DNA of 43,668 bases from an uncultured Methanosarcinales archaeon (lineage in GTDB: Archaea > Nanobdellota > Nanobdellia > Woesearchaeales > DATDXC01), in the NCBI GenBank assembly GCA_964510025.1, contig CAZDZV010000005.1, positions 62,001 to 105,668 of the forward strand. The letters run 5' to 3'. Below are positions 3,214-43,668 of the stretch, piece by piece. The position numbers and the translations under genes are program-made. The notes beneath the pieces were generated by a model. The model made no database searches and had not been told where the DNA came from. It worked only from the letters and a program-made list of their open reading frames with translations. Position 1 is the first letter of the stretch; every line of letters begins with the position of its first letter.

Positions 3214-3843
3214 ATGGAAACACTTGAATGCATACGGAAAAGACGCTCGATTAGAAAGTATAAGGACAAGCCTATTGAATGGGACAATGTGGTCAAAATA
3301 CTGGATGCAGCAAGGATGGCTCCATCTTCAGGAAACATTCAGAACTGGAAGTTTGTGGTTTTAAAGGAGCCTGCTAATATAAAGAAGATAAGTAAGGCAT
3401 GCTATGATCAAGACTGGATATCTGAAGCCCCTGTAGTTATTGTGGCAACAGCGGACCCGGAACAAACAGAAAGGTTCTATGGTGTTAGAGGGGAAAGGCT
3501 GTATAGTGCTCAGAACTGCGCTGCTGCCATCGAAAACATGCTGCTGACTGCCACTGCATTGGGATTGGGATCCTGCTGGGTAGGGGCTTTTGATGAAAGC
3601 AAGATACGAGTGCTGCTACAGCTGCCTGAGGAGATAATACCCCATGCAGTTATTACCATAGGATATGCAGATGAAGCACCCCTCCTCCCCCAGAAGAAAA
3701 GGCTAGAATGGATTGTTGGTCTAGAGAAGTACAAGGGAAGAAAGAAATCACCTATAAGGGGATATATAAGTGAGACAATACCGAAGATAGTAGACGGGGC
3801 CAAGCGTACTGTCAACCGACAGATAAAAAATCTAAAAAAATGA
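3214..3843 (+). CDS. Nitroreductase family flavoprotein
   Basis: RRSIRKY, APSSGNIQNWKFVV, ENMLLTATALGLGSCWVGAF motifs. Confidence 0.92.
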   Translation: METLECIRKRRSIRKYKDKPIEWDNVVKILDAARMAPSSGNIQNWKFVVLKEPANIKKISKACYDQDWISEAPVVIVATADPEQTERFYGVRGERLYSAQNCAAAIENMLLTATALGLGSCWVGAFDESKIRVLLQLPEEIIPHAVITIGYADEAPLLPQKKRLEWIVGLEKYKGRKKSPIRGYISETIPKIVDGAKRTVNRQIKNLKK

Positions 3844-3859
3844 ACTATCTATTCTAGAA

Positions 3860-3876
3860 ACGAAAAGCTTAAATAT
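3860..3876 (+). promoter_or_regulatory. Candidate archaeal BRE-TATA promoter
   Basis: ACGAAAAGCTTAAATA, purine-rich BRE plus TTAAATA; no annotated gene starts 25-30 nt downstream. Confidence 0.4.
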
Positions 3877-3910
3877 TAGTTTATACACAATATATAAAAT
3901 AAGAATTAAG

Positions 3911-4050
3911 TTTTTTTGAGTTTTTTTGGCGAAAAACTCAAATAAATGTGGTTTTTTGGCGAAAACCGGTGTTATTTGGCGTTTTTAGACGCTTTGGAAA
4001 ACGATTTTGTGTTAATAAACATGTTGGCGCACGTTTACTAACTTTTTCTT
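3911..4050 (-). ncRNA. Candidate small RNA with repeated CGCCAA-loop hairpins, divergent from ftsZ
   Basis: Three hairpins with loop CGCCAA (minus strand) at 4011-4042, 3950-3967, 3915-3942, plus a fourth CGCCAA at 3976-3981; minus-strand promoter at 4074-4090. Confidence 0.45.
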
Positions 4051-4073
4051 AGGTAGAATAATAATCAAACGCA

Positions 4074-4090
4074 CATATAAATATTTCGGT
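4074..4090 (-). promoter_or_regulatory. Candidate BRE-TATA promoter on minus strand
   Basis: Minus strand reads ACCGAAATATTTATATG; predicted start near 4045-4050. Confidence 0.5.
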
Positions 4091-4141
4091 ACTCTAATAT
4101 TTATATTGCGGTATATATAAGTCCACAAGAGGGGTGAAAAA

Positions 4142-5212
4142 ATGGAGGTAATTGTGAATAACGCATTGAAGCAGACACAGGAACAACCAGCTGGGGATAT
4201 GCAGATAAACCAGGCCAACATAAAAGTTTTCGGTGTTGGTGGCGCTGGTAACAATATGGTTGGATGGCTATACCAAAAAGGGATAAAAGGTGCCGAAATT
4301 ATAGCTGCAAATACAGATATGCAGCATCTGAATATCATTGATTCAGATAGAAAGATTCTGCTGGGAAGAGGTGTTACCAGAGGATTAGGCTGCGGTGGCT
4401 TTCCTGAAAAGGGAAGTGAATCTGCCCAAGAGTCTTTGCAAGAGATAAAAGAATCCCTTAAAGGCTCAGATATGACTTTTGTATGCGCTGGAATGGGCGG
4501 AGGTACAGGAACAGGAGCAGCACCAATAATTGCACAGGTTGCAAAAGACGCAGGATCTATAGTCATCGGAACAGTGACAATGCCTTTCAAGATAGAAAGA
4601 GCAAGAGTGGATAAAGCTGAATTTGGACTACAGCAACTTAGGCAGGTATCAGATACTGTTATAGTGATAGACAACAACAGGCTTGTAAACATAGCCGGAA
4701 ATCTGCCAATACAACAGGCATTTGCCGTGGCTAACGAGCTAATAGCAACGATGATAAAGGGCATTGTAGAGACAATAGCTGTACCAAGCTTGGTCAACCT
4801 AGATTACGCAGATGTAAAGGCAATAATGACAAATGGCGGAGTAGCTGCAATAGGAGTAGGATCATCAGACACAAACAGCAGAGTGGAGGAAGCTGTCAAG
4901 GGAGCTTTAAGCAACCCCTTACTGGATATTAGCTACAAAGGAGCATCCGGAGCGCTGATACATATACATGGAGGGGCAGATATGACTCTTGATGAGATCA
5001 ACAGAGTTGGAGAGCTAGTAACAGAAAGCCTGGATCCAGATGCGAATGTCATTTGGGGAGCCAGGGTAAGTGATGAAATGAAAGGAAAAATGACAGTGAT
5101 GACCATCATTACAGGAGTGAAGTCCCCATGGATATTAGGAAAAGTAGACTATTCAAAGCCTACCCCCCAAGCATCCCAGCTAGGGGAAGAATTAGGAATA
5201 GAGATAGTCTAG
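4142..5212 (+). CDS. ftsZ: Cell division GTPase FtsZ (FtsZ2-like)
   Basis: GVGGAGNN, tubulin signature GMGGGTGTG, T7 loop VNLDYADV, C-terminal ELGIEIV; SD GGGGTG at 4131-4136. Confidence 0.98.
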   Translation: MEVIVNNALKQTQEQPAGDMQINQANIKVFGVGGAGNNMVGWLYQKGIKGAEIIAANTDMQHLNIIDSDRKILLGRGVTRGLGCGGFPEKGSESAQESLQEIKESLKGSDMTFVCAGMGGGTGTGAAPIIAQVAKDAGSIVIGTVTMPFKIERARVDKAEFGLQQLRQVSDTVIVIDNNRLVNIAGNLPIQQAFAVANELIATMIKGIVETIAVPSLVNLDYADVKAIMTNGGVAAIGVGSSDTNSRVEEAVKGALSNPLLDISYKGASGALIHIHGGADMTLDEINRVGELVTESLDPDANVIWGARVSDEMKGKMTVMTIITGVKSPWILGKVDYSKPTPQASQLGEELGIEIV

Positions 5213-5502: not shown

Positions 5503-5526
5503 AAGAAAAAACAATTTTTGTATGCT

Positions 5527-6264
5527 ATGGCGCTTTACTTGATAGGTATTGGGTTGGGTGATGAGAAAGATATAACCCTTAGTGGCTTGGAGGCAGCGAA
5601 GAGATGCAGCGCGCTTTATTTGGAAAGTTACACCTCAAAGCTCGCAGAAGATGTGGATTTGGGGAGATATTACGGGAAAAAGATAATAAAAGCCAAAAGG
5701 GAAGATATTGAAAATAAGGCCAGCGACATAATTGACAGCGCTAAAGACAAAGATATTGGTATTTTGGTGGTGGGCGACCCACTTGGCGCCACAACGCATA
5801 TCAGTCTGCTATTGGAGGCAAAAAAGAAGGGCATAGATGTGCGGATTATACATAATGCCTCTATATTAACCGCTGTTGGAGAGGTTGGGCTGGAGCTTTA
5901 CAAATTTGGGCATGTTACATCCATACCTTTTAACAACAAGGATATCAAAACCCCCATAGAAATTTTCAAAAGAAACTACAAAGCAAATCTGCATACGTTG
6001 TTTCTTCTGGATTTATCTAGCGGCAAATATATGGGCATACCAGAGGCTGCAGATTACCTCTTAAGCAACGGTTTGGATGAAAATCTAAGGGCTATCGGTT
6101 GCGCTGGAATCGGCAGCATAAATGCTGAGATCAAAGCCGGAAATCTAAGGGGATTGCGGCAATATAAATTTACTCTATATCCCCAGTGCCTTATAATACC
6201 TGCAAAGAAATTGCACTTCATGGAGCAGGAAGCTCTTAAACTATTAGACGCAGGCTCCGTCTGA
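5527..6264 (+). CDS. dph5: Diphthine synthase (diphthamide methyltransferase)
   Basis: LYLIGIGLGDEKDIT, YLESYTS, VGDPLGATTH, HNASI, GLELYKFG, HTLFLLDL, LHFME. Confidence 0.95.
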   Translation: MALYLIGIGLGDEKDITLSGLEAAKRCSALYLESYTSKLAEDVDLGRYYGKKIIKAKREDIENKASDIIDSAKDKDIGILVVGDPLGATTHISLLLEAKKKGIDVRIIHNASILTAVGEVGLELYKFGHVTSIPFNNKDIKTPIEIFKRNYKANLHTLFLLDLSSGKYMGIPEAADYLLSNGLDENLRAIGCAGIGSINAEIKAGNLRGLRQYKFTLYPQCLIIPAKKLHFMEQEALKLLDAGSV

Positions 6265-6638: not shown

Positions 6639-6739
6639 AGTCCCGTGGTGTAGTGGTCAAGCATTTCGGCTTTTGGAGTTGGAAAATGGATTTCCGGCAA
6701 AAACAGCCGAAGACGGCAGTTCGAGTCTGCCCGGGACTA
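6639..6739 (+). tRNA. tRNA-Gln(UUG) with 28-nt intron at canonical 37/38 position (intron 6677-6704)
   Basis: Acceptor AGTCCCG/CGGGACT, anticodon stem TCGGC/GCCGA with TTG at 6673-6675, T arm GGCAG-TTCGAGT-CTGCC, strict bulge-helix-bulge; CCA not encoded; TATA TTTATAAA upstream. Confidence 0.95.
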
Positions 6740-8194: not shown

Positions 8195-8650
8195 ATGGCA
8201 CGGATGCATTCAAGAAGAAAGGGAAAAGCAGGAAGCACAAAACCTGCTAAGAAAAATGCACCAATATGGCTGAGGTACAAGCCAAAGGAGATTGAGCTTC
8301 TTATAGTTAAACTATCAAAAGAGGGCAAAAGCCCATCCCATATAGGTCTTATACTGAGAGACACATATGGTATTCCTGACGTTACCCTGATCCTAAAAAA
8401 AAGCATCACCGATATACTGGCTGAAAAGAAACTGCTGCCTGAGATACCTGAGGACCTTAGAGCGCTGATAAGGAAGGTGGTAGATATAAGGAAGCACCTT
8501 GAGTCCAACCATAAGGATGAGACTGCAAAAAGGGGCCTTATACTGAGTGAATCCAAAATTAAGAGGCTTGTCAAGTACTATAAAAGAACAAGAAAACTAA
8601 GCTCTGACTGGAAGTACGATCCAGAGAAGGCTGCCCTGTTCACTGAATAA
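8195..8650 (+). CDS. rps15: 30S ribosomal protein uS15 (archaeal S15/S13e type)
   Basis: MARMHSRRKGKAGS, IGLILRDTYGIP, IPEDL, ESKIKRLVKYYK; SD AGGTGAT. Confidence 0.98.
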   Translation: MARMHSRRKGKAGSTKPAKKNAPIWLRYKPKEIELLIVKLSKEGKSPSHIGLILRDTYGIPDVTLILKKSITDILAEKKLLPEIPEDLRALIRKVVDIRKHLESNHKDETAKRGLILSESKIKRLVKYYKRTRKLSSDWKYDPEKAALFTE

Positions 8651-9458
8651 GCCTTATTTTTTCTATTGCTTTCTTTATTACCGAATCCGGGGTAGAGGCT
8701 CCAGCTGTGATGCCGGCCACAGCCTTTCCCCTAAACCAGGCCTCATCTATCTCTGCTCCAGTCTCAATGTGCTTTGTCATCACAACTGAGCTGCACAAAG
8801 CTGCTAATTGCCTGGTGTTAGCGGAATTATGGCCGCCTATGACTATCATAATATCAACCTCTTTTGCCAGATCCAGAGCTGCAGACTGCCTTTCCTGAGT
8901 TGCGTTGCATATGGTGTTTATAAGCCTGACTTCGTCTGCGTGTTGCTTAAGCTCATCGCTAATCTCTATAAAGTGGCCTAATTTTTGAGTGGTCTGTGCT
9001 ACAACACCGATTTTTTTGAAATGCGGCATTTTCCTTGCGTCTTTCAAATCATCGACTATTATGCCCCCCTCTAGGTTTTGCTTTATTGCCTCTACCTCTG
9101 GATGGCCTTTTTGTCCGACTATAATGACCTGGTAACCCTTGCTTTCCAGCTCCTTTGCGTAATCCTGGACCTTCTTTACGAACGGACAGGTAAGATCCAG
9201 CACCTGAAGCCCCTTGGCTTTAATCTCTTTTAAAAGCCTATCAGGGACCCCATGCGTCCTGATCACCACCTTATCTGAATCTACCTGATCTATGGAATCA
9301 ACTGCCTTTATCCCTCTTGACTCTAGATATTTTACGAACTGGGGATTGTGTATCAAAGGGCCCAGGGTATTCACCTCTCCCTTCAATTCAAGCACACATT
9401 CTACTGCTCTTTTTACACCAAAACAAAACCCATGCCTATCAGCTATTCTTACTTCCAT
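8640..9458 (-). CDS. ispH: 4-hydroxy-3-methylbut-2-enyl diphosphate reductase
   Basis: GFCFGV, IHN, THG, TCPFV, GHPEV, QTT, TICNAT, SANT, AGASTP; three Fe-S Cys present. Confidence 0.97.
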   Translation of the reverse strand: MEVRIADRHGFCFGVKRAVECVLELKGEVNTLGPLIHNPQFVKYLESRGIKAVDSIDQVDSDKVVIRTHGVPDRLLKEIKAKGLQVLDLTCPFVKKVQDYAKELESKGYQVIIVGQKGHPEVEAIKQNLEGGIIVDDLKDARKMPHFKKIGVVAQTTQKLGHFIEISDELKQHADEVRLINTICNATQERQSAALDLAKEVDIMIVIGGHNSANTRQLAALCSSVVMTKHIETGAEIDEAWFRGKAVAGITAGASTPDSVIKKAIEKIRLIQ

Positions 9459-10249
9459 TTTGTCCGGGTTGCATATACATATGGATATTTATTTTTCAGA
9501 TTATCATAAGCCTGCATCAATTTTTCTTTATCCTGAAATATTCCAAAGACAGTAGGGCCTTTTCCTGTAATTGAAGCATTTAGGGCTCCTTCCCCATTTA
9601 GGCTGCCTACCATATCCCTGACAATTGGCTTCTGTATATAAATGAAATCGTTATGTAGTGCAGAGCTGATTTCTTCGATATTACCAGCTTTTCTCATCTT
9701 AATGCTCGCTGACTTTCTCTGCTTGTGGACCTTATCCATCTGCGCATAGGCTTCTTTAGTGGAGAGCTGGTATCCTGGATTCACCAATAGGATATTCATT
9801 TTAGCAGCGTGCAGCTCTTCCACCTTATCTCCGTAGCCTGATACAAAAGAGCAGTTTCCTTTAAGAAAAAAAGGAACATCGGCCCCCAATTCACAGGCTA
9901 TCTTTGTAAGCTGGGAGCTGTCAAGGTTGAGATCCCATATCTTGTTCAGGGCCAGCAGCGCAGCAGCTGCATCAGAGGAGCCACCGCCGAGTCCGGCTCC
10001 TGCAGGGATATTCTTCCTTATCTTTATCTCAACCCCCGATTGGACATCAAAAAGCGTTCTTAGCTTCAGGGCTGTCCGTCGGACAATATCATCTTTGAAT
10101 TCTGAAGCTACAACAACATCCTGGTTGCGCGTGAAAAACAGCTCATCAAACAAGTCAATTTTCTGCATAACAGAATTGATATTGTGGTATCCGTCTTTTC
10201 TTTTATCAAGAACGTCTAGGGCGAGATTTATCTTAGCATAGGCCTTCAT
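9449..10249 (-). CDS. ispE: 4-diphosphocytidyl-2-C-methyl-D-erythritol kinase
   Basis: AKINLAL, IPAGAGLGGGSSDAA, LGADVPFF, HNDF; cluster context. Confidence 0.95.
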   Translation of the reverse strand: MKAYAKINLALDVLDKRKDGYHNINSVMQKIDLFDELFFTRNQDVVVASEFKDDIVRRTALKLRTLFDVQSGVEIKIRKNIPAGAGLGGGSSDAAAALLALNKIWDLNLDSSQLTKIACELGADVPFFLKGNCSFVSGYGDKVEELHAAKMNILLVNPGYQLSTKEAYAQMDKVHKQRKSASIKMRKAGNIEEISSALHNDFIYIQKPIVRDMVGSLNGEGALNASITGKGPTVFGIFQDKEKLMQAYDNLKNKYPYVYATRTKWK

Positions 10250-11403
10250 TTTTTATTCAAAGTCACAACCGCCGAAGCCTTAATTCCCTGTCCCTTGCCC
10301 CATGGCGTCAGGTCCTCACCTGATGTCGCAGTTATCCCCACATCAGACCTGTCAAGAGTGCAGAGAGATGCTATGCTTTCCTTTATCTTTTCCTCATATT
10401 CATCTATCCTTGGCTTTTTGGCCTCGATCATAATCCCTATATTGCCGATGGTGTAGCCCCTTTCTGCCGCCATTTTAAGGGCCTTCTCAAGATATTTTTT
10501 GCTGTCAGTTATGCCCTTTTCGTACATCTTATCGGCATAAAAGCCTATGCTCTTGCCCCCTGTTGCCTGGCTTACCGCATTGAATAATGCATGCAGGATA
10601 ACATCTCCATCTGAGTTTGCGTCCAGTCCTTTTTCACCATCTATCTCTACGCCACCAAGCACAAGCTTCTTCTGCTCACTTTCCACGAACCGATGGGAGT
10701 CCTCGCCTAAACCTACCCTTGACGCTTTTGTTATGTTCCTGGCGACTGTTAGATCCACAGGATAAGTTATCTTGACATTTTCAGGGTTTGTCTCTATAAC
10801 CTTAACCTTCCTAGCCATCCTCTCGACCAACGAGACATCATCAGTACCGTAGAATTCTTCCTCGTAAGCTTTCTTAAATGACCTGACGGCCAAACCATAT
10901 TTTATGGCCTGGGGAGTCTGCATCTGCCACAGCTTTTTTCTTTCAAGGGTCTTTTCCACAAAGCCTTTCTCATCCACTTGCTTTATCGTATCCTTTGCTC
11001 TATGGGCGGCGGCAGCTGCCCCATATTTCATGGCTGCGTTTATAGTCTCTGCGATTGTCTTTTTGGTAACAAAAGGATTTACGGCATTGTGGATGACTAC
11101 AATGTCGGATGCCTTAAGCGTGTGAAGATACAGTATGCCGTTGTTCACAGAGTCCTGACGTCTTTCGCCCCCTTCAAGAACCTTCTCAATCTTATCGAGA
11201 TTATGCTCCTGCTTTAGTCTTTCGATCTCAGTGAAATATTCTTTTTTTGCAATTATGATGATCTTGTCGATGAAATCACATTCATGAAAGGTCTTTATGG
11301 AATAGTATATTATCGGCTTGTCATCCAATAATCTGAGTATCTTATTCACTCCGTCGCCCATGCGCCTGCCAATGCCTGCCCCCAAGATTAATGCTACATT
11401 CAT
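10246..11403 (-). CDS. ispDF: Bifunctional IspD-IspF fusion
   Basis: IspD: GAGIGRRM, GGERRQDSV, QTPQ, TDDVS, NVKITYP; IspF: GEDSHRF, SDGDVILHA, GITATSGE. Confidence 0.95.
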   Translation of the reverse strand: MNVALILGAGIGRRMGDGVNKILRLLDDKPIIYYSIKTFHECDFIDKIIIIAKKEYFTEIERLKQEHNLDKIEKVLEGGERRQDSVNNGILYLHTLKASDIVVIHNAVNPFVTKKTIAETINAAMKYGAAAAAHRAKDTIKQVDEKGFVEKTLERKKLWQMQTPQAIKYGLAVRSFKKAYEEEFYGTDDVSLVERMARKVKVIETNPENVKITYPVDLTVARNITKASRVGLGEDSHRFVESEQKKLVLGGVEIDGEKGLDANSDGDVILHALFNAVSQATGGKSIGFYADKMYEKGITDSKKYLEKALKMAAERGYTIGNIGIMIEAKKPRIDEYEEKIKESIASLCTLDRSDVGITATSGEDLTPWGKGQGIKASAVVTLNKK

Positions 11404-12527
11404 CTTTCTTCTGCCTTATCTTTTATTCTCTTATCCACCTCTAGGATCTGGTCTAAGGATGGTTGTTTAATAATTTTATGATTGTCTAGAGTCTCCTTTA
11501 TCCTTTCAGCAATATCCAAGAATCCAATCTTGTTGTCAAGGAATGCTCTTACTGCTACCTCATTGGCAGCATTCATAGCAGCCGGCATCGTTCCCCCTGC
11601 TTTTCCGGCTTCGTAAGCATATCCTAAACACGGAAAAAGATCAAGGTCGGGCTCTCTGAAATCAAGACTCTTGAGCTGAGCTAAATTCAGGCTTCTATGC
11701 TCGCTGGCAAATCTTTTTGGATAGGATAATGCATATTGGATAGGTATCTTCATATCAGGCCACCCTAGCTGCGCTAAAACAGAAGTGTCTTTAAACTCCA
11801 CAAGAGAATGCACTATTGACTGGGGGTGTATAACAACATCGATATCCCCATAATCAACCTTGAATAGGTGATGGGCCTCGATAACTTCAAGCCCCTTATT
11901 CATCAATGTGGCGGAGTCTATTGTTATCTTAGCCCCCATATTCCAGTTAGGGTGCTTAAGAGCATCCTCTTTAGTGACATTTTTCAGTTGCGCTGCTGAT
12001 CTATCCCTGAATGATCCGCCTGAACACGTCAAGATGATCTTCCTGATATCCTTAGAGTCCTCTCCTTTAAGGCACTGAAATATCGCTGAGTGTTCTGAGT
12101 CGATAGGTGTCAGCTGAACACCTTTTTTTTTCGCCAGCTGCATCACTATTCTTCCAGCCGCTACAAGCGTTTCCTTGTTCGCAAGCGCAACATCTTTGCT
12201 TGCTTTTATTGCTTCTACTGTGGGAACAATTCCTATGCTCCCCACCATGGAATTCAAGACAATATCACAGCTATCTAAGCTGGCTAGCTTTGCAAGCCCT
12301 TCCATGCCTGAGAGCACCGGGATATCTGCTCTCAGGGAATCTGCTTTCTCCTTTTCGAAAACAGCGACAGCTTCTGGACTAAATTCCTCAATCTGCTTTG
12401 CCAGCAGGCCGATATTTGAATTGCATGCCAAAGCCTTAACCTGGAATCTGGAAGGATTATTTCTTACAATCTGCAATGCCTGTGTCCCTATACTGCCTGT
12501 TGAGCCCAGTATCACTACGCGCTTCAT
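11400..12527 (-). CDS. dxr: 1-deoxy-D-xylulose 5-phosphate reductoisomerase
   Basis: LGSTGSIG, LANKE, PIDSEHSAIFQ, HPNWNMGAKITIDSATLMNKGLEVIEA, PDMK, NAANE. Confidence 0.98.
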   Translation of the reverse strand: MKRVVILGSTGSIGTQALQIVRNNPSRFQVKALACNSNIGLLAKQIEEFSPEAVAVFEKEKADSLRADIPVLSGMEGLAKLASLDSCDIVLNSMVGSIGIVPTVEAIKASKDVALANKETLVAAGRIVMQLAKKKGVQLTPIDSEHSAIFQCLKGEDSKDIRKIILTCSGGSFRDRSAAQLKNVTKEDALKHPNWNMGAKITIDSATLMNKGLEVIEAHHLFKVDYGDIDVVIHPQSIVHSLVEFKDTSVLAQLGWPDMKIPIQYALSYPKRFASEHRSLNLAQLKSLDFREPDLDLFPCLGYAYEAGKAGGTMPAAMNAANEVAVRAFLDNKIGFLDIAERIKETLDNHKIIKQPSLDQILEVDKRIKDKAEER

Positions 12528-12551
12528 AGACAGTCAGTAAACTGCAGTTCA

Positions 12552-12566
12552 TTTTAAAGGTTTTTA
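12552..12566 (-). promoter_or_regulatory. TATA-type promoter for dxr-ispDF-ispE-ispH
   Basis: Minus strand AAAAACCTTTAAAA about 25 nt upstream of the dxr ATG (leaderless geometry). Confidence 0.55.
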
Positions 12567-12639
12567 TAGTAAAGTAAATTTATATTGTTATTGAAAAGTA
12601 ACAAAAGCTTTAAAAGAAGGGGCTGATTACAGGAGCTAA

Positions 12640-13521
12640 ATGACAGTAACATACTTGACAAAGATATTCAGAATAGCGGCAGATTTGGCTATTAGGCAGA
12701 AAAAAAGAGAGGGTGTGCCATGCCGGCTTGATGATCTGGCAGAAGCTACAGGTATTGGCAAGGCCTATATTTCACAAGTGCTTCACTCAAACAGAAGATA
12801 TGAATCGATGGAACCAGAAAGATTTAACAGTCTTTGTGGTGCCTTAAACCTCGAGCCCGATACATATCTTGTAAAAAAAGTTGAAGCACGGCTGCTTGGC
12901 GGAGAAACAGTAAGCATTGATGATTTTCTGCCTCATTCTAGCCCGTATTATGTAAAGCCACCCAAAGATATTTCAACCAGCAGGGCAGCTTATTTCAGCG
13001 AAATCTTTGCCCTTATCGCAGTGAGGGCTCTTGCCGGAAATAAAAGGATAGGAGAACAGCCGCACAGCCAGGCTGATCTAGTACGCCTTACAGGATACAA
13101 TAAAGGTCAATTATGTCAAATGCTGGATGAGAACAATGAATTTAATCTTGTTAATCCTGAGAAATTCAAAAAACTCTGCAGTGCCCTAGACCTTGATCCA
13201 GATGCATTTCTTGTTAGGGAGGTTGAAGAAAGGCTGCTCAGAGGTGAACGAATAACATATCGGAGCTTTATCCCTCAAATCCAACTTACTGCCTATGAAC
13301 TTCCATCCGAAGTTATGCTAATCGGGGAGCTGAAGGGGGATGCACTTAGATACGCATACGCAGTTCCATCTACAGAGGTCGGGACCTTTGCTGCAGACCA
13401 GGGAATCGGCATATGGGAGGCTGCAAGACAGCTATGGGAAACGGCTGGGCTGAAAGGATTATTCACAGTACGCCCTTTTTCACCTGATAACACTAGGGCT
13501 TATGAATTTAAATCAAGTTAG
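12640..13521 (+). CDS. Hypothetical protein with two internally repeated Xre/Cro-like HTH modules
   Basis: LDDLAEATGIGKAYISQVL..FNSLCGALNLEPDTYLVKKVEARLLGGE versus QADLVRLTGYNKGQLCQML..FKKLCSALDLDPDAFLVREVEERLLRGE. Confidence 0.75.
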   Translation: MTVTYLTKIFRIAADLAIRQKKREGVPCRLDDLAEATGIGKAYISQVLHSNRRYESMEPERFNSLCGALNLEPDTYLVKKVEARLLGGETVSIDDFLPHSSPYYVKPPKDISTSRAAYFSEIFALIAVRALAGNKRIGEQPHSQADLVRLTGYNKGQLCQMLDENNEFNLVNPEKFKKLCSALDLDPDAFLVREVEERLLRGERITYRSFIPQIQLTAYELPSEVMLIGELKGDALRYAYAVPSTEVGTFAADQGIGIWEAARQLWETAGLKGLFTVRPFSPDNTRAYEFKSS

Positions 13522-14535
13522 TCTGCCGACAATCTTATCTATAATCTCCTGCTCTTTGACTTTCTCTACTATCTGGCCTTTCTCATAGAGCAAGCACCTG
13601 TCCTTTCCACCAACAACACCGATATCAGCTTCTTTTGCCTCGCCTGGACCATTTACACAGCAGCCCATTATCGCTATCTTGATTGGATCCTTCAGGCTGG
13701 CTGTTTTTTCTTCGATTTTTTTTGCGATAGCTGCTACATCTATGTCTGCCCTGGCGCAGGTGGGGCATGCAATTACGCTGATGCCCCTTTGTCGCAAATT
13801 CAGGGCCTTTAAAATCTGCCAGCCTGCCTTAACCTCTTCAACAGGATCACCTGACAATGAAACCCTTATTGTGCTTCCTATGCCTTCTGAAAGCAGGATT
13901 CCTATCCCTACAGCATTATTGATGGCCCCTGTAAATACCGAACCTGCTTCAGTGACCCCAAGATGGAGCGGATAGTCATATTCTTCTGAAAAAAGGCGAT
14001 TTGCCTTCACCATCTTATTAACATCTGATGATTTCAGCGAAACAACTGTATCATAGAAATCATTTTTTTCAAGGAAAGAAATCTCTTTAGCTGCAGAGGC
14101 TACCATTGCTTCCGGCGTTAGACCATATCTCCCCTCAATATCCTTATCCAGGCTGCCCAGATTAACGCCCACCCTGATGGGAATAGCATTGTCTTTGGCT
14201 GCCTGGATGACCTTCTTCACTTTCCGCTGATCACCAATGTTCCCTGGATTGATCCTGAGCTTATCGGCAAATTTTGCAGATTCTATCGCCAGCCTATAGT
14301 CAAAATGAATGTCTGCAACCAAAGGAATTGCAATGTTTTCTTTTATCTCTTTCAATGCATAAGCTGAATCCATGTCAGGAACACTTACCCGGACTATCTC
14401 ACAGCCGTGCTCTTCCAGATCATGAATCTGCTCTATTGTAGAAGACGTGTCGGTGGTCTGGGTAGTACACATGCTTTGCACTGTAACAGGAGAATCCCCC
14501 CCTACTGTGATATTGCCCACCCTAATCTTTTTCAT
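13513..14535 (-). CDS. ispG: (E)-4-hydroxy-3-methylbut-2-enyl-diphosphate synthase
   Basis: VQSM, PLVADIHF, RINPGN, IRVGVN, LHLGVTEAG, CPTCAR, MGCCVNGPGEA. Confidence 0.98.
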   Translation of the reverse strand: MKKIRVGNITVGGDSPVTVQSMCTTQTTDTSSTIEQIHDLEEHGCEIVRVSVPDMDSAYALKEIKENIAIPLVADIHFDYRLAIESAKFADKLRINPGNIGDQRKVKKVIQAAKDNAIPIRVGVNLGSLDKDIEGRYGLTPEAMVASAAKEISFLEKNDFYDTVVSLKSSDVNKMVKANRLFSEEYDYPLHLGVTEAGSVFTGAINNAVGIGILLSEGIGSTIRVSLSGDPVEEVKAGWQILKALNLRQRGISVIACPTCARADIDVAAIAKKIEEKTASLKDPIKIAIMGCCVNGPGEAKEADIGVVGGKDRCLLYEKGQIVEKVKEQEIIDKIVGRLT

Positions 14536-16379
14536 GATGCTTGTCTTATGATATTCTCTTTTGATAAACCTAGCTTCTTTCGCAACAAAGAAACAGGACC
14601 ATGGGGGACGAATCGATCTGGAATACCGATCCTTTTCACCTCTGTCCTTATCTTTTTTTTCTCTAAAAATTCCAAAAGCGCAGAGCCAAAGCCCGCCTGC
14701 AGCGCATTTTCTTCAACAGTAATGACTTTTTTTGCCTTTTTTGCGAAGCGGATTATTGTTTTCTCATCCAGAGGCTTGATGAATCTGGCATTTATGACTG
14801 CTGCCGACTTCAAGCTTCTGGATGCCTGTAAGGCCTCTTCCACCATAGAACCAACAGCAAATATGGCGGTATCTCTTCCTGACTTGAGAACCTCATAGCT
14901 ACCTATTGGTATTTTTTTATAGGGGTTCTGGATAGCTACGCCTATACCACATCCCCTAGGGTATCTTAATGCAGCAGGACCACCATGTTCAATCGCGGTC
15001 CTAAGCATATGTCCCAGCTCATTCTCATCCTTAGGGGCCATCACGACCATATTAGGTATATGGCGAAGGTAGCTCAAATCAAAGGCGCCGTGGTGGGTGG
15101 GGCCGTCCTCGCCTACAAGACCTGCCCGATCCAATGCAAAGGTAACTGGAAGGTTCTGAAGAGCAACATCATGCACAATCTGGTCATAGGCCCTCTGAAG
15201 GAAAGTAGAATAGACTGCTACAACCGGCTTCATCCCTTGGGAAGCGAGGCCTGCTGCAAAAGTCACTGCATGCTGCTCAGCTATCCCCACATCAAAGAAT
15301 CTTTGGGGAAATGCTTTTTGGAAGCTTTCCAAGCCGGTGCCGGATGACATTGCCGCAGTGATGGCAACGATGCTCTTGTCTTTTTCTGCCAGCTTCATAA
15401 GACATTTTGAAAAGGCTTGCGTAAATGTTGTTGTGCTGTTGCAGACAATCTTTTTGCCATTGGCAGGGTCAAAGGGGCTTATGCCATGAAATTTTACCTT
15501 GTCTCTCTCTGCATATTTATAGCCATGGCCTTTCTTCGTGATTACATGCAGGATCCTGGGCCCCTTAAGCTTCTTGATATTCTGCAATGAGGTTATAAGC
15601 TCTTTGAGGTCATGGCCGTCTATGGGTCCGAAATAGTTGAAGCCTAACTCCTTAAACAATAATCCAGGAGTCGAGCTAAAGGCTCTTAGTGTCTCTTCCA
15701 TGTTCGCTGCCAATAGTCCCGCCCTGTCGCCTATCAGGGGCAGCTCGTTCAGGAAATTCTTTGCAGTCTTTTTTCTTTCCAGGTAGTTAGGATCTGTCAC
15801 CATCTTTCTGAGATATGTATTCAGGGCACCGATATTTGGGCTTATAGACATCTTATTATCGTTCAATATGACTATGAGATCGGTGTCAAGATCACCTGCC
15901 TGATTCAGGGCTTCGAAGGCCATTCCGCCTGTAAGGGCTCCGTCCCCGATAACTGAGACCACCTTATACTGTTCTTTCCTCAGATCCCTGGCTTTCGCTA
16001 TTCCAAGCGATGCAGAGATAGAGGTAGAGCTGTGCCCTGTATTGAATGCGTCGTAAATGCTTTCCTCTTTTTTGGGAAACCCGCTCAGGCCCTGGTATCT
16101 GCGCAATGAACCGAACTTAGCTGATCTGCCTGTAAGTAGCTTATGGGCATAGGTCTGGTGGCCTACATCCCATATTATCTTATCAGCAGGCGTATCGAAC
16201 ACATGGTGCAGCGCTATTGTCAGCTCAACAACACCCAAGGAGGAAGCAAGATGGCCGCCTGTCTTAGCTACTGTGGATATTATTTTGTTGATTATCTCTT
16301 TCTTCAGCTTAAACAGCTCTTCTATTGTCAAAAGGCGTAAATCTCCTGGTGAGCTAATCATCCCTAAGATATCTGACAT
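14532..16379 (-). CDS. dxs: 1-deoxy-D-xylulose-5-phosphate synthase
   Basis: GGHLASSLG, WDVGHQ, GHSSTSIS, TPP motif GDGALTGG..NDN, IAEQHA, YSTFLQR, DRAG. Confidence 0.98.
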   Translation of the reverse strand: MSDILGMISSPGDLRLLTIEELFKLKKEIINKIISTVAKTGGHLASSLGVVELTIALHHVFDTPADKIIWDVGHQTYAHKLLTGRSAKFGSLRRYQGLSGFPKKEESIYDAFNTGHSSTSISASLGIAKARDLRKEQYKVVSVIGDGALTGGMAFEALNQAGDLDTDLIVILNDNKMSISPNIGALNTYLRKMVTDPNYLERKKTAKNFLNELPLIGDRAGLLAANMEETLRAFSSTPGLLFKELGFNYFGPIDGHDLKELITSLQNIKKLKGPRILHVITKKGHGYKYAERDKVKFHGISPFDPANGKKIVCNSTTTFTQAFSKCLMKLAEKDKSIVAITAAMSSGTGLESFQKAFPQRFFDVGIAEQHAVTFAAGLASQGMKPVVAVYSTFLQRAYDQIVHDVALQNLPVTFALDRAGLVGEDGPTHHGAFDLSYLRHIPNMVVMAPKDENELGHMLRTAIEHGGPAALRYPRGCGIGVAIQNPYKKIPIGSYEVLKSGRDTAIFAVGSMVEEALQASRSLKSAAVINARFIKPLDEKTIIRFAKKAKKVITVEENALQAGFGSALLEFLEKKKIRTEVKRIGIPDRFVPHGPVSLLRKKLGLSKENIIRQAS

Positions 16380-34826: not shown

Positions 34827-35087
34827 ATGGTGGCAGTAAAGATACAAATAATTAAGGAAAATGCAATCATCCCAAAACTAGCACATGAGGGGGATGCTGG
34901 TGTAGACCTGTATTCTACTGAGGATTATGAGCTGAGTCCTGGAGCCAGGACCCTGGTATCCACTGGAATCAAGATAAGCCTGCCCGATGGATATGAAGCA
35001 CAGATCAGACCCAAATCAGGGCTTGCTCTGAAAAATGGCATCTCTGTTCTAAATACACCGGGGACTATCGATTCAGGATATAGGGGG
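34827..35087 (+). CDS. dut: dUTPase, 5' part only (cut at junction)
   Basis: Motifs 1-3 [22 protein letters not shown] present; motifs 4-5 absent. Confidence 0.93.
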
Positions 35088-35095
35088 CGAGCTCA
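35082..35095. other. Archaeal/alphaproteobacterial junction (probable chimera)
   Basis: Abrupt switch from AT-rich to very GC-rich sequence; dut and alr both truncated. Confidence 0.92.
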
Positions 35096-35529
35096 CGCGC
35101 CCCGGCATCGGCCTGTATGGCGGCGCGCCCTTCGCCGAGGCCGAGCCGGTGGTCGCGCTGTCGCTGCCGGTGATCCAGACCCGCCTCGTCCGCCCGGGCG
35201 AGAGCGTGGGCTACGGCGCCACCTGGACGGCGCGGCAGGACACGCTGGTGGCCACCGTCGCCGCCGGCTACGCCGACGGGCTCGACCGGCACCTGTCGAA
35301 CGCGGGCACGCTCTGGTCCGGCGGCACGCCCTGCCCGATCCTCGGCCGCGTCTCGATGGACCTCATCGGCTGCGACGTCACCGCGCTGCCGGAGTTCCCC
35401 GAATGGCTGGACGTGCTCTGCCCCGCCCAGGGCATCGACGCGCTGGCAGAGGCCACCGGCACCATCGGCTACGAGGTGCTCACCACGCTGGGCCGCCGCT
35501 ACGCGCGCCGCTACGCCGGGCCCGCATGA
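35089..35529 (+). CDS. alr: Alanine racemase, 3' part only
   Basis: [37 protein letters not shown]. Confidence 0.95.
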
Positions 35530-36299
35530 GGGCGCTGGCCGCCATCGGCGCCTCCACGCTCGCCCTGCTGGCGGGCGCGGGGCGGGCGACGCTGTTCCTG
35601 CTGGCCGGCCTCCGCGCGTTGGTCCTGCCGCCGTTCTATGTCCGGGAGTTCGCCCGTGCCCTCGCGACGATTGGGTATTTCTCGCTGCCGGTCGTCGGGC
35701 TGACGGCCTTTTTCACCGGCGGCGCGCTGGCGCTGCAGATCTACGACGGCGGCGCGCGCTTCAACGCGCAGTCGGTCGTCCCCTCGATCGTCGCCATCGG
35801 CATGGTGCGCGAGCTCGGCCCCGTCCTCGGCGGGCTGATGGTGGCCGCGCGCGTGGCCTCCTCGATCGCCGCCGAGATCGGCACCATGAAGGTGACCGAG
35901 CAGATCGACGCGCTCGTCACCCTCTCCACCGATCCGATGCGCTACCTCGTCGCCCCGCGCCTGCTGGCCGGCACCCTGGCCGTGCCCGCCCTGGTGGCGG
36001 TGGGCGACGCCATCGGCATTCTCGGCGGCTGGATCGTGGGCACCTCGCGGCTGGGCTTCAACTCCGCGGTCTATCTTCAGACGACGGCCGATTATCTGGA
36101 AGCGGCGGACGTCGTCTCCGGGCTCGTGAAGGGGGCCGTCTTCGGCCTGATCGTCGCGCTGATGGGCTGCTTCTTCGGCATGACGTCGGGCCGTGGGGCG
36201 CAGGGCGTGGGCCGGGCGACGAAATCGGCCGTGGTCTCCGCCTCCATCCTCATTCTGGCTGCCAACTACCTGCTGACGGAGGTTTTCTTCTCGGCATGA
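35526..36299 (+). CDS. mlaE: MlaE-family ABC permease
   Basis: [36 protein letters not shown] overlap with the alr stop. Confidence 0.95.
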
Positions 36300-37042
36300 T
36301 CGCGGTGGAGGGGCTGTGGAAGGCGTTCGGCGACACGCCGGTGCTCCGGGGCGTGTCGCTGCAGGTCGCCGCGGGCGAAAGCTGCGTCGTGATCGGCGGC
36401 TCGGGCACGGGAAAATCCGTCCTTCTCAAGTGCATCCTCGGCCTCGTTCAACCGGATGCCGGGACCGTCTCGTTCGAGGGAAGGCCGCTGACGCAGGGGA
36501 ATCGCGCGGCGTTCCTCGACCGGTTCGGCATGCTGTTCCAGGGCGCGGCGCTGTTCGATTCCCTGCCCGTCTGGCAGAACGTCGCCTTCCGCCTGCTGCG
36601 CGGCGCGGCGAAGCGCCCCCGGGAGGAGGCGCGCGCCATCGCGCTGGAAAAGCTGCGCCGGGTCGGCCTGTCGGCGGACGTGGCCGACCTGTACCCGGCC
36701 GAGCTGTCCGGCGGGATGCAGAAGCGCGCGGGCCTCGCGCGCGCGATCGCCGCCGATCCCGAGATCATCTTCTTCGACGAGCCTACGACGGGCCTCGATC
36801 CGATCCTCGCGGGCGTGATCAACGCGCTGATCCGCGAGATCGTCACCGAGATGGGCGCCACCGCGATCACCATCACCCACGACATGACCTCGGTGCGCGC
36901 CATCGCCGACCGGGTGGCGATGCTGCATGACGGGGTCGTCCAGTGGCAGGGGACCGTCGCAGAAATGGACATCACGCCAGACCCTTGCGTGTCGCAGTTC
37001 ATCCACGGCCGGGCCGAGGGGCCGATCAGCGCGCTGCGCTAG
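36296..37042 (+). CDS. mlaF: MlaF-family ABC ATPase
   Basis: [34 protein letters not shown]. Confidence 0.95.
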
Positions 37043-38520
37043 TTCTCGTCCGGCAGGGCCGGCAGGTCGAAGATCTGGCCGGGATAGATCAGGTCGGGGT
37101 CGCGGATCTGGTCGTCGTTGGCCTCGAAGATGTGGACATAGTCGAAGCCGCTGCCGTAGCGATCGCTGGCGATGCCCCACAGCGTGTAGCCCGGCTGCAC
37201 GGTGATCAGGCGCGCGCGCAGCGCGGTCTGCCCCGGCGCGTCGACGGCGCCCGTTTCGAGCCGGGCGAGCCCCGCCGGATCCTCGCGCTTGAAGGGCGTC
37301 TCGAACCGCGAGACGACCCGGCCCGACCGGTCGAGCTGGTCCACCCGCAGCGTGTACAGGCCGCTGCGGAGCTCGGCGATGGGCAGCCGCCAGGTGCCGT
37401 CGGCACGGATGGGCGCGCTGTCCACGGGCGCACCGTCGAGATACACGCGCACCGAATCCACAGGCGGCGGGGGCGGCGCCGAGCGGCCCTCCAGGAGCAC
37501 CGCGCCGTCGGCGGCGTAGCTGATCACGTCCACCGTCACCCGGTCCGCGGGCTGCGCGCCCGGCGCTGCGGGCTGCAGCATCCGCACGCCCTCGCGGTCG
37601 GCGAACAGCACCGCCGGCGCCGCCCCCCCCGGCCGGGGCGCCTCCGCCGACGCCTCCGGACGCGGAAGCGGCGGCTCCGCGCCGCCGGTCGGCCGCGCCG
37701 CGCGGGCCGATCGCTCCGTCGCGGCCCCGGTCGCGCCGGTCCGCGCCGGAGCCGGAACGGCGGCGCGCAATTGCGGCGGCGCTGCCGCGCCCTTGCCGCT
37801 CGCCACGCCGGATCCGCGTGTCTTTCCCGGCAGATCCGCGACGGTGTTCGGCCGTGCGGGCCGCACCGGCGAGGCGTCCACCGCGGCGGCCGTTTCCGGC
37901 GCGCCTTGCCGGGGGGCGCGGCCGTTCCTCGCCGGGGCAGCCGGCGCCGAGGCGGCGGGGCGGGCCCGCGCCGCGCCGGGCGACGGGGCGATCACCACCG
38001 CTCCGGCGGCACGCCGCTCGGCGCCGTCGGGGTCGCGCGCGACGAGTTCGAGCACACGCCCGCCGTCGTCCCGCGGCAGATCGAGGAAGAGCACGAAACC
38101 GCCACGGTCGTCCGCCCGTGCGGTGGCGGCGGTGGCCCCGTCGACGTCGACGCGCACCGCCTCCCCCGGTTCGGCCCGGCCCGCCACGAGCACCGAGCCG
38201 TCCGCCTCGGCCCGTACCAGCTCGAACCGCGGCGCGGGCCGCGCGGCGGTCGCGTTCGCGAGGCCCGCTCGATCGCGGAGGGGCGCGGCCGCCACGTCGT
38301 CCGCCAGGTCCGCCCGGGCCGGGCCGTCCGAGCCCGCAGGCGGCGCGCTGGCCGCTTCGCGCCCGTCCGAGGGAGGGGCAGCCGCCTCCGGGGCCGGAAG
38401 CCGAGGCGCGTCGCGGGGGCCTGCCCAGAAGACGGCGTGCACGACCCACGCGGCGGCGGCGATGCTCGCCCCGCCCCCCAGGACCATGCCGGTCCGGTTG
38501 CCCCAGCTGCGCCGTGCCAT
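37039..38520 (-). CDS. LysM-domain protein with two Ig-like repeats and Ala/Pro linker
   Basis: C-terminal TVQPGYTLWGIA..IFEAN..IRDPDLIYPGQ; repeated DG.V...GR..VRV..DG. Confidence 0.9.
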   Translation of the reverse strand: MARRSWGNRTGMVLGGGASIAAAAWVVHAVFWAGPRDAPRLPAPEAAAPPSDGREAASAPPAGSDGPARADLADDVAAAPLRDRAGLANATAARPAPRFELVRAEADGSVLVAGRAEPGEAVRVDVDGATAATARADDRGGFVLFLDLPRDDGGRVLELVARDPDGAERRAAGAVVIAPSPGAARARPAASAPAAPARNGRAPRQGAPETAAAVDASPVRPARPNTVADLPGKTRGSGVASGKGAAAPPQLRAAVPAPARTGATGAATERSARAARPTGGAEPPLPRPEASAEAPRPGGAAPAVLFADREGVRMLQPAAPGAQPADRVTVDVISYAADGAVLLEGRSAPPPPPVDSVRVYLDGAPVDSAPIRADGTWRLPIAELRSGLYTLRVDQLDRSGRVVSRFETPFKREDPAGLARLETGAVDAPGQTALRARLITVQPGYTLWGIASDRYGSGFDYVHIFEANDDQIRDPDLIYPGQIFDLPALPDEN

Positions 38521-38624
38521 CGCCTTCCCCCGGCAGGCCAGTCGAAAGATGCTGACGCCGCTTGTGAGCGTCGGTCAAGATCGCTACTCCACCACAAGAT
38601 ATAGGTGAAGCGGATGTGACTGCC

Positions 38625-39200
38625 ATGCCCCACGGCCCGTTCTCGGTCTGCGTCTATTGCGGCTCGCGCGACGGGGCCGATCCCGCCTTCGCGGCCGACG
38701 CCGAGGCCGTGGGCCGCCTGCTCGCCGGCCGCGGCTGGCGGCTGGTCTACGGCGCGGGCGATGTCGGGCTGATGGGGCGCGTGGCCCGGGCGGCGCAGGC
38801 GGCCGGCGGGGCGACGTTGGGCGTGATCCCCGAGCATCTCATGGCCCGCGAGGTGGGCAAGCGCGACCTCGACACGCTCGTCGTCACCGAGACGATGCAC
38901 GAGCGCAAGAAGGTGATGTTCATGAACGCCGACGCCATCGTCGTCCTGCCCGGCGGCGCGGGCACCCTCGACGAGATGTTCGAGGCGCTCACCTGGCGCC
39001 AGCTCGGCCTACACGACAAGCAGGTTTTCCTTCTCAATACAAGCGGTTACTGGACACCCTTCACCGAACTTCTGAAAAGCGTCGTGGCGGGCGGCTTCGC
39101 CGCGCCGGATCTCGTGCGCATGGTCACGGTGGCGAGCAGCGTGGCCGCGCTCGGCGACGCGGTGGACTTCGTCGCCGCCTCGCGGGGGCACGGCGGCTGA
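38625..39200 (+). CDS. LOG family phosphoribohydrolase (TIGR00730-like)
   Basis: VCVYCGS, LVYGAG..GLMG, MHERK, PGGAGTLDE. Confidence 0.95.
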   Translation: MPHGPFSVCVYCGSRDGADPAFAADAEAVGRLLAGRGWRLVYGAGDVGLMGRVARAAQAAGGATLGVIPEHLMAREVGKRDLDTLVVTETMHERKKVMFMNADAIVVLPGGAGTLDEMFEALTWRQLGLHDKQVFLLNTSGYWTPFTELLKSVVAGGFAAPDLVRMVTVASSVAALGDAVDFVAASRGHGG

Positions 39201-39231
39201 ACGCCCGTGGCCCTGCGGGCCGCGGCCCGCC

Positions 39232-39855
39232 TCAGCCCTCGGCGCCGGCCTCGGGGGCGCTTCCGTCGCCGGGCGCGGTCGCGGGCGGCACCTCGCCCTC
39301 GCCGCAGGAGCGGGCGATGAGGTCCTCGAAGCGCTGGGTGAGCCAGGTCAGCGCCTGCTCCTGATCGGCGATCTCGCCGGCGATCTGCTCCTGCAGCGAC
39401 TGGAAGATCTGCTCCGAACGGCTGTCCTCCACGATCGGCAGGCCCTCGGTGCCGGCGACGAAATCGTAGACGATGAGCGCGATCACCACGAGCAGCATCC
39501 CCCGCAGCGCGCCGAACAGGAAGCCCAGCCCCTGGTCGATGGCGTTCAGCGCCGAGCGCTGCACGAGCGAGGAGAACAGCGGCGCGAACAGCGCAACCAC
39601 GATCAGTACCACCGCGAAGACCGCCGCGAAGGCGGCGATGGTGGAGGCCGCGCAGTTCTCGAGGAAGTCCGAGACGACGGGGATTTCGCGGATCAGCGGC
39701 TCGGCCCGCGGCGCGAACATGTAGGCGAGCACCGCGGCCGCCACCCAGCCCGCGATCGCCAGCGCCTCGCGCACGAAGCCGCGCGCATAGGCGAGGATCG
39801 CCGAGATCACGATGACGACGGCGACGCCCGCATCGACGAGAGTGAAGCCTTCCAT
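39232..39855 (-). CDS. cvpA: CvpA family membrane protein
   Basis: RGFVREAL, IDQGLGFLFGALRG; downstream of radA. Confidence 0.92.
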   Translation of the reverse strand: MEGFTLVDAGVAVVIVISAILAYARGFVREALAIAGWVAAAVLAYMFAPRAEPLIREIPVVSDFLENCAASTIAAFAAVFAVVLIVVALFAPLFSSLVQRSALNAIDQGLGFLFGALRGMLLVVIALIVYDFVAGTEGLPIVEDSRSEQIFQSLQEQIAGEIADQEQALTWLTQRFEDLIARSCGEGEVPPATAPGDGSAPEAGAEG

Positions 39856-39952
39856 GCGTCCGCCTTCCTGCCCCCCGCGGGGCCGGGCCCCGCGCCCCAT
39901 CCGGTCGTCCGGGGTCGCCGCGCCGCGGCGGGGACCCGCCCGGTCCGGCGCC

Positions 39953-41347
<1,395 letters not shown>

Positions 41348-41387
41348 GTCTGCGCTCATGCCCTGCCCGCGCCCGGGCGGCAAGGGC

Positions 41388-41441
41388 GGGTGCGGGGGCC
41401 AGCCCCCGCACCCCCGGAGTATTTGCGCCAAGATGATGGGG
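41388..41441. repeat. REP-like palindromic intergenic element
   Basis: GGGTGCGGGGGC-CA-GCCCCCGCACCC followed by CCGGAGTATTTGCGCCAAGATGATGGGG; single copy in window. Confidence 0.55.
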
Positions 41442-41554
41442 CAGCAGAGCGGGGGCCGGGCGGGCGCGGCGCCCTGCGGCGGGCCGCCCGGCCCCGAAGG
41501 CGGCGGTTGCGGCGTGCTGCGACGCGGGGCGCTGTCCGGTGGGGCGCGTGCCGC

Positions 41555-42334: not shown

Positions 42335-42510
42335 GTGCGTGCTCTCCCTGTTGCGGTCGCCCCGCGCCTTAGCACCGGGGCGCGCGGGCGGGAAGGCGGG
42401 TTGCCGCCGCTCGCCCGCGGCAGCCGCCCGCCCGTTGCCCCGCGCCCCCGGCGCGGCTATCGGAAGGCGACACGGGGCACCGGGAGCGGCGAGGGGGCAC
42501 GGGAGGGCCG

Positions 42511-43545: not shown

Positions 43546-43565
43546 TCGCGCAGGAGGAGACAGGG

Positions 43566-43668
43566 ATGCAGACCGATTTCGACTGGACGCGCGCGCAGTT
43601 CCACCTGCCCGAGGGCGTCACCTATCTCGACGGCAACTCCCTCGGCCCCCTGCCCCGCGCGGCGGCCG
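43566..43668 (+). CDS. kynU: Kynureninase, 5' fragment
   Basis: MQTDFDWTRAQFHLPEGVTYLDGNSLGPLP; SD AGGAGGAG. Confidence 0.88.
   Translation, partial: MQTDFDWTRAQFHLPEGVTYLDGNSLGPLPRAAA

Follow-up and report, generated by a model that had tools for sequence, protein, structure and literature searches.

A covarying array of TTGGCG-loop hairpins between converging promoter motifs upstream of archaeal ftsZ2: a candidate cis-antisense switch

The region upstream of the ftsZ2-type gene in the window (the whole stretch of 43,668 nucleotides analysed here) carries a series of hairpins that present the same loop, and the array is larger than first described, with hairpins from 3915 to 4042 lying between two converging BRE-TATA motifs, P1 and P2 (Table 1). 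As judged by strong covariation of the stems, the array is a real RNA family, and it has no Rfam match. It is likely transcribed in both directions, giving an ftsZ2 leader with UUGGCG loops and an antisense RNA of ~150 nt with CGCCAA loops. The reading put forward here, with confidence a little above even, is that the array would act on ftsZ2 as a cis-antisense kissing-loop switch, in archaea from which the regulator CdrS is reportedly absent. An earlier note on this DNA had interpreted the array as a sponge or multi-target RNA divergent from ftsZ, and that interpretation is partly supported.

Table 1. Features of the ftsZ2 upstream region (window coordinates).
Feature	Position	Strand	Remarks
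Nitroreductase-family gene, upstream of array	3214..3843	+	3' end toward array
P1, BRE-TATA motif ACGAAAAGCTTAAATA, predicted ftsZ2 promoter	3860-3875	+	Motif matrix
Predicted ftsZ2 5' leader, ~240 nt, UUGGCG loops	3900..4141	+	Predicted start near TAAGAA at 3900
Predicted antisense RNA, ~150 nt, CGCCAA loops	3900..4050	-	Predicted start ~4050, U-rich end ~3900
Hairpin 1, 11 bp	3915-3942		Loop TTGGCG 3926-3931
Hairpin 2, 6 bp (GGTTTT/AAAACC)	3950-3967		Loop TTGGCG 3956-3961
Unpaired TTGGCG copy	3976-3981		Overlaps 4-bp hairpin 3979-3992
Last hairpin, 13 bp	4011-4042		Loop 4024-4029; first hairpin of predicted antisense RNA
TTTTTCTTA with conserved TTCT	4043..4051		Minus: predicted antisense start; plus: U-tract, possible terminator
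P2, antisense BRE-TATA motif CCGAAATATTTATATG (ACCGAAATATTTATAT in the earlier note)	about 4074-4090	-	Matrix score 16.2
ATATAT-type element	4095..4108		5' of P2; mirror counterpart 5' of P1
Shine-Dalgarno-like GAGGGGTGA	4129..4137	+	~80 nt downstream of predicted antisense start
ftsZ (TIGR00065), assigned FtsZ2	4142..5212	+	

The four TTGGCG copies of the window array start at 3926, 3956, 3976 and 4024, as had been reported, and three of them occupy the loops of different stems, which are 11, 6 and 13 bp long. Also as described, the 13-bp stem has two A-C pairs on the plus strand that become G-U pairs on the minus strand. The unpaired copy at 3976 recurs, exact or degenerate, at the equivalent place in close relatives, and loop geometry does not explain this recurrence. 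The array is no chance occurrence: nowhere else in the 1.70-Mb genome do at least three TTGGCG/CGCCAA copies cluster within 150 nt, and it holds 3/4 of the genome's CGCCAA-loop hairpins with a stem of at least 6 bp. Folding of the array gave z = -5.19 on the minus strand (0/200 shuffles as good) and z = -3.15 on the plus strand (1/200), and six tracts of U4 or longer lie in the array portion of the predicted leader. A contig assembled from DNA run X1 matches window positions 3834-4150 with zero differences, though X1 may be the very sample that the window comes from. The ftsZ gene that follows is assigned to FtsZ2 because the other ftsZ of the genome precedes secE-, spt5- and L11-like ORFs, which we take to be the ftsZ1 context.

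For the promoters, a BRE-TATA matrix of canonical shape was learned from plus-strand P1 sites and then run on the minus strand. The minus-strand BRE-TATA from which a transcript had been proposed to start just before the 13-bp hairpin is present (P2). With a score of 16.2 it ranks within the best 90 of the 3.4 million positions scored in the genome, and it is conserved in relatives with a fixed start geometry. The layout described as divergent from ftsZ has to be revised, as the plus-strand motif P1 faces into the array and the two promoters converge. When an array is present, the distance from P1 to the start codon is 199-375 nt, and in most array-less ftsZ2 copies the same motif is found closer to the start codon as a proximal promoter-like site. 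This makes P1 the likely promoter of ftsZ2 and places the array, in all likelihood, within the leader. The idea of a free-standing sponge that merely shares the ftsZ promoter region is not upheld by this position downstream of an ftsZ2-type promoter, nor by the identity of the next gene, which is ftsZ at nearly all assessable metagenome loci (see below).

The matrix detected P2 in 30/31 arrays as compared with 5/35 regions without TTGGCG (median scores 13.0 and -1.2, respectively), and several of those five regions bear variant loops. AGAA occurs at a distance of 21-25 nt from P2 in 31/31 arrays. As judged by the motif, the ftsZ2 leader thus contains a putative promoter for a counter-transcript. 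P2 is kept in at least 15/31 arrays in which the upstream gene is co-directional, i.e. where there is no divergent gene, and in the window P2 likewise has no such gene to drive, because the 3' end of the nitroreductase-family gene faces the array. P2 abuts the ribosome site in the other-order loci L207, L218, L220 and L230, where a further promoter would hardly fit downstream of P2. The ATATAT-type element of the window may be an operator common to both promoters or, alternatively, a weak TATA on the plus strand that lacks a purine BRE, and through a weak plus-strand TATA at 4100-4107 ftsZ2 could be transcribed in this genome without the array.

Interference between the converging promoters might by itself account for this arrangement, the hairpins serving only to stabilise, pause or end two short RNAs and any kissing being incidental. 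A P2 score of at least 8 in 14/35 other-order regions, several of them without TTGGCG, makes the antisense promoter more widespread than the loops, although some of these motifs may just drive a divergent gene. Interference would also agree with the ATATAT-type element mirrored upstream of both promoters and with an antisense RNA that falls short of the ribosome site, but it leaves unexplained a fixed, oriented loop of the U-turn type that is identical to plasmid recognition loops, and it is considered quite improbable.

Two further features of the upstream regions were recorded. A highly conserved CAGTATACAAAAAC-type motif, possibly the operator of a regulator, directly precedes the BRE in array-less ftsZ2 copies (e.g. 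L031, L039, L046, L054, L068 and L070). Loci with an array have an ATATAT-type counterpart of it upstream of each of the two promoters. The diphthine synthase gene dph5 is often the divergent upstream gene (L012, L013, L021, L024, L025, L035, L036, L042, L043, L047 and L060) and might there also be driven by P2; dph5 of the window follows ftsZ2 at 5518-6264.

The distribution of the array was assessed in upstream regions of ftsZ2-type matches from a search of 61 genomes, with three truncated loci excluded and a few weaker or contig-edge matches left out. The array is present in 31/67 of these regions, corresponding by our own count to 31/52 same-order genomes, with L063 and its two atypical copies counted apart. 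Exactly one array-bearing copy was found in 13/16 of the examined genomes with two FtsZ2-type copies. In a class-wide set of 40 matches, about one per family, at least two TTGGCG were present in 3/5 further same-order regions and in 5/35 regions from other orders of the class. Orientation is nearly invariant, with 115 sites in 44/107 regions against one reversed site. The latter belongs to L194 (genome G153), where the element is reduced to a single long, bulged hairpin that shows CGCCAA on the plus strand and has a shape like that of CopA or Inc.

A scan of a genome collection with a loose pattern covered 120 of ~6000 stretches. Five of the 120 include ftsZ, and three of these pass the array filter, namely L096 and L127 (Woesearchaeota) and L121 ('archaeon ARS102'), where the same element precedes an ftsZ 73-78% identical to that of the window. 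These matches suggest a host of Woesearchaeales type. In metagenomes, where elements were picked by their first two hairpins and partly coincide with those of the genome set, ftsZ follows in 35/36 loci that have P1 and extend far enough downstream, the exception being a tandem repeat. P1 is lacking from 54/118 metagenome matches, mostly simple tandem repeats among the matches listed, and a viral scan gave 0/23 matches with ftsZ or both promoter motifs. Sequence conservation among the compared genomes, which are kin, does not extend beyond P1. The upstream genes vary.

The proposed RNA architecture of a fixed loop on variable stems was borne out in the ftsZ2-upstream regions of relatives, where the stems covary and the loops stay fixed. 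At least 5/6 Watson-Crick pairs flank the loop at 70/115 TTGGCG sites, compared with 6% when arms were swapped (maximum 13% in 2000), and these 70 sites display 48 distinct arms; a good stem is absent at the other 45/115. For the last hairpin, an alignment of 14 relatives chosen for alignability has 96% of cells paired and 8/11 pairs changed on both sides. The latter count was reached by 61/500 shuffles and the other four measures by 0/500, with 38 both-side-changed cells as against 11.2 in shuffled alignments.

The minus-strand polarity of G-U wobbles noted earlier for the 13-bp hairpin extends to the last hairpins of relatives (16 on minus versus 3 on plus in the 107-region set), and first hairpins lean the other way (7 plus versus 4 minus). 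In 48 metagenome elements, which are kin and pattern-selected, the corresponding counts are 63 minus versus 6 plus and 14 plus versus 5 minus. The wobbles favour the strand of the nearer promoter and therefore argue for RNA, strongly on the minus strand and more weakly on the plus strand. Median fold z values are -1.45 for plus and -2.44 for minus, with minus better in 30/35, and evidence for a structured RNA is weaker on the plus strand than on the minus strand.

A search of positions 3840-4145 with Rfam covariance models gave only chance-level matches, both at the gathering score and at E 10, in line with the earlier note, which did not recognise the array as a described family. The models for CopA (RF00042), PK-repZ (RF01087) and RNAI (RF00106) match their own plasmids and have no match in the array even at E 10.

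A DNA element, whether a double-stranded operator array, cruciforms or a ColE1-like RNA-primed origin, is very improbable given these data. Its mirror-image flanks and the likeness to the ColE1 RNA I loop in one lineage could be read in this way, but the stems covary without sequence conservation, G-U polarity tracks the nearer promoter and nothing is conserved beyond P1. Furthermore, the 71 spacings lack helical phasing (Rayleigh p 0.33 at 10.5 nt, 0.06 at 10 and 0.08 at 11), and cdc6 is encoded on another contig of the genome. Hence, the plain double-stranded operator that had been named as a refuting case finds no support.

The loops themselves conform largely to YUNR, the U-turn motif of loop-loop antisense systems according to PMC4485353 and PMC10798244. 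The motif fits 187/195 six-base loops within two changes of TTGGCG, and there are exceptions in some other-order lineages. Within a genome all loop copies change together, as in L211 (TCGGCTA in three copies), L225 (TACGGCT in three copies) and L216, L217 and L224 (TTGGGC), and some of these concerted variants lose YUNR on the sense strand. In the relative L038, two loops read TTGGTAG, which is the loop of ColE1 RNA I.

Concerted loop changes, some of them without YUNR, are explained no less well by a protein that binds all copies than by loop-loop pairing, and they are the best argument for such a ligand. In this main rival, which is judged rather unlikely, a sequence-specific RNA-binding protein would read the loops, with the minus-strand RNA acting as a CsrB-like sponge or the antisense RNA stripping a protein off the UUGGCG loops of the leader. 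CsrB and RsmZ are protein-titrating RNAs that carry a repeated motif in the loops of unrelated stems and in unpaired copies. The ftsZ2 array likewise has its motif in loops and single-stranded linkers; it differs in the motif, in being fixed in the leader of one gene and in having promoter motifs on both strands. The many identical loops on unrelated stems, their change in concert by lineage, the retention of unpaired hexamers and the better folding of the minus strand in 30/35 would suit a protein ligand. On the other hand, no regulon of the CsrB/RsmZ kind sharing the motif was detected, since the hexamer lies near only 24/1742 ORF starts where ~40 would be expected by our own arithmetic. The proposed multi-target RNA is likewise not borne out by this lack of enrichment at other start codons, and the genome has a single cluster. 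Strict linkage to ftsZ2 (35/36) and variable upstream genes, with no partner gene travelling with the array, also count against a protein. Repeated loops, moreover, need no protein ligand, as ColE1 RNA I has identical loops in a pure antisense pair.

A protein of ~180 aa with a weak winged-helix match (TrmB/MarR-like, below the cut-off) is a frequent ftsZ2 neighbour in either orientation, with or without an array (L007:2851-3387, L017:676-1212, L014, L037, L040 and L049), and is a candidate transcription factor for ftsZ2. As a partner of the loops it is disfavoured, since one query did not find it in the window genome and it also flanks array-less copies.

Pairing of the CGCCAA loops in trans with 16S rRNA, in which TTGGCG occurs in a conserved stretch, or mimicry or binding of tRNA NCCA ends is scarcely credible. 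AATTGGCGGGGG is present at the 16S site in 4/10 genomes searched (no such site was detected in the remaining 6), but the loops have changed with the 16S site unchanged in all three informative genomes (G022, G076 and G082). Many loop variants keep CCA on the minus strand; the likeness to a tRNA NCCA end pointed out earlier nevertheless fails in TTGACG, TCGGCTA and TACGGCT, which break it, and neither form of trans pairing explains the ftsZ2 linkage.

The array would work like plasmid countertranscript control, yet is not a member of the CopA, PK-repZ or RNAI families of Rfam. In the plasmid sequences, the R100 CopA loop is CGCCAA, the ColIb-P9 repZ leader loop is UUGGCG and the loop UUGGUAG occurs twice in ColE1 RNA I. 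The polarity of the array is that of repZ and CopT, with UUGGCG on the sense leader. This holds for ColIb-P9 Inc RNA and the repZ leader (RF01087) and for IncB/K RNAI-SLI, which likewise have CGCCAA on the counter-transcript. These plasmid systems use one long hairpin, whereas the ftsZ2 array has 2-5 short ones and lies on an archaeal chromosome at a cell-division gene. Neither a pseudoknot partner nor a conserved leader peptide, as in ColIb-P9 repZ, was found in the ftsZ2 arrays. Asano et al. (1998) reportedly described a kissing complex between ColIb-P9 Inc RNA and repZ. That work is cited in PMC3753616, PMC9977716 and PMC4374534. For RNAI-SLI a kissing complex forms first, according to PMC10724649.

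The CopA/CopT pair of IncFII (RF00042) shares the CGCCAA loop of R100 CopA with the antisense strand of the array. It has a single recognition loop and the Tap leader peptide, which CopA blocks, whereas the ftsZ2 array has no conserved upstream ORF and no homology in its stems. For CopT, a YUNR U-turn on the target and CCG/GGC first contact are described in PMC10798244. ColE1 RNA I/RNA II (RF00106) resembles the array in that its promoters converge and that several of its hairpins have similar loops. ColE1, however, carries the UUGG loops on its antisense RNA, which targets a replication primer, whereas the array has them on the ftsZ2-sense strand and gives no evidence of an origin. The gene downstream of the array in the 35/36 assessable loci is a chromosomal ftsZ and not a plasmid rep gene or primer.

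In the antisense switch favoured here, P1 would produce the ~240-nt leader and P2 the ~150-nt countertranscript. The UUGG U-turn loops would nucleate kissing, with several identical loops speeding the pairing, and loop-loop pairing would pass into a duplex and turn ftsZ2 down. The duplex, or a collision of polymerases, would stop or cut the nascent leader within its U-tracts, so that the P1:P2 balance would set the FtsZ2 level. That the leader would end early or be cleaved, perhaps with the help of polymerase collision, is the most likely output and the weakest step of the scheme. Sense U4 tracts number 2.29 per 100 nt in arrays, as against 0.80 in leaders that lack an array and 0.34 from P2 to the start codon, an excess that is partly due to stems made of U/A runs. 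The genome encodes aCPSF1, a protein that binds terminator U-tracts according to PMC8716108. Given this excess and the presence of aCPSF1, premature termination or cleavage is therefore favoured.

Two other outputs appear less likely. The Shine-Dalgarno-like site lies outside the predicted antisense RNA, because it is ~80 nt downstream of the predicted start, and the RNA cannot simply cover it; in folding, the predicted duplex barely alters the accessibility of the ribosome site (0.58 to 0.68). A ribosome-site switch is disfavoured on both counts. As for a leader peptide or small ORF, the 31-codon ORF crossing the window array is unconserved, and none is present in 11/29 loci.

The array holds the same place, directly upstream of ftsZ2, as the gene for CdrS, the ribbon-helix-helix protein of the cdrS-ftsZ2 locus in Euryarchaeota and others, and would control the same gene. 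According to Darnell et al. (PMC7439475), who also describe that locus, DPANN was the one archaeal clade among those examined in which CdrS was not detected. No ribbon-helix-helix ORF is present at 3844-4141, the RHH_1 matches of the genome being on other contigs, and the antisense switch would do the job of CdrS in DPANN. More tentatively, and on balance doubtfully, this DPANN class may run division by a chromosomal multi-loop countertranscript switch that replaced CdrS and independently reached both plasmid loops (UUGGCG/CGCCAA and UUGGUAG). A constitutive, unstable antisense RNA, as in plasmids, would then be a gauge of gene dosage or cell volume that times FtsZ2 synthesis.

In the 2024 review PMC7617429, the terms 'antisense' and 'small RNA' do not occur, and no report of an antisense, leader or hairpin non-coding RNA at ftsZ of Woesearchaeota or DPANN was found in a literature search of mainly open-access papers. 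A class-wide structured RNA at the cdrS position makes ftsZ2 control in DPANN testable. If the switch is real, it would represent archaeal chromosomal loop-loop antisense control with loops convergent with plasmid motifs. Even with a protein ligand, the array would be a covarying RNA family without an Rfam match, and its natural loop variants could identify the partner.

Several observations concern other parts of the window and genomes. The contig is chimeric at window positions 35088-43668, where GC rises from ~0.42 to 0.74. Contigs from runs X1 and X2 match the window up to 35087 and then diverge into other sequence. The window after 35087 looks alphaproteobacterial, and the ORF at 34827-36299 is an artefactual dUTPase fusion. 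An AT-rich intergenic region at ~1500-1900 of contig C6 in genome G000 contains several near-identical repeats of ~30 nt and adjoins a 51-aa ribbon-helix-helix-like ORF. A tRNA match from Rfam at window 6639-6739 (101 nt), which is not in the ARAGORN list, likely contains an intron. Finally, ORFs of this archaeon at window 8640-16379, which form a cluster and were named by reading their translations, resemble those of the bacterial MEP isoprenoid pathway (ispH, ispE, an ispD-ispF fusion, dxr, ispG and dxs).
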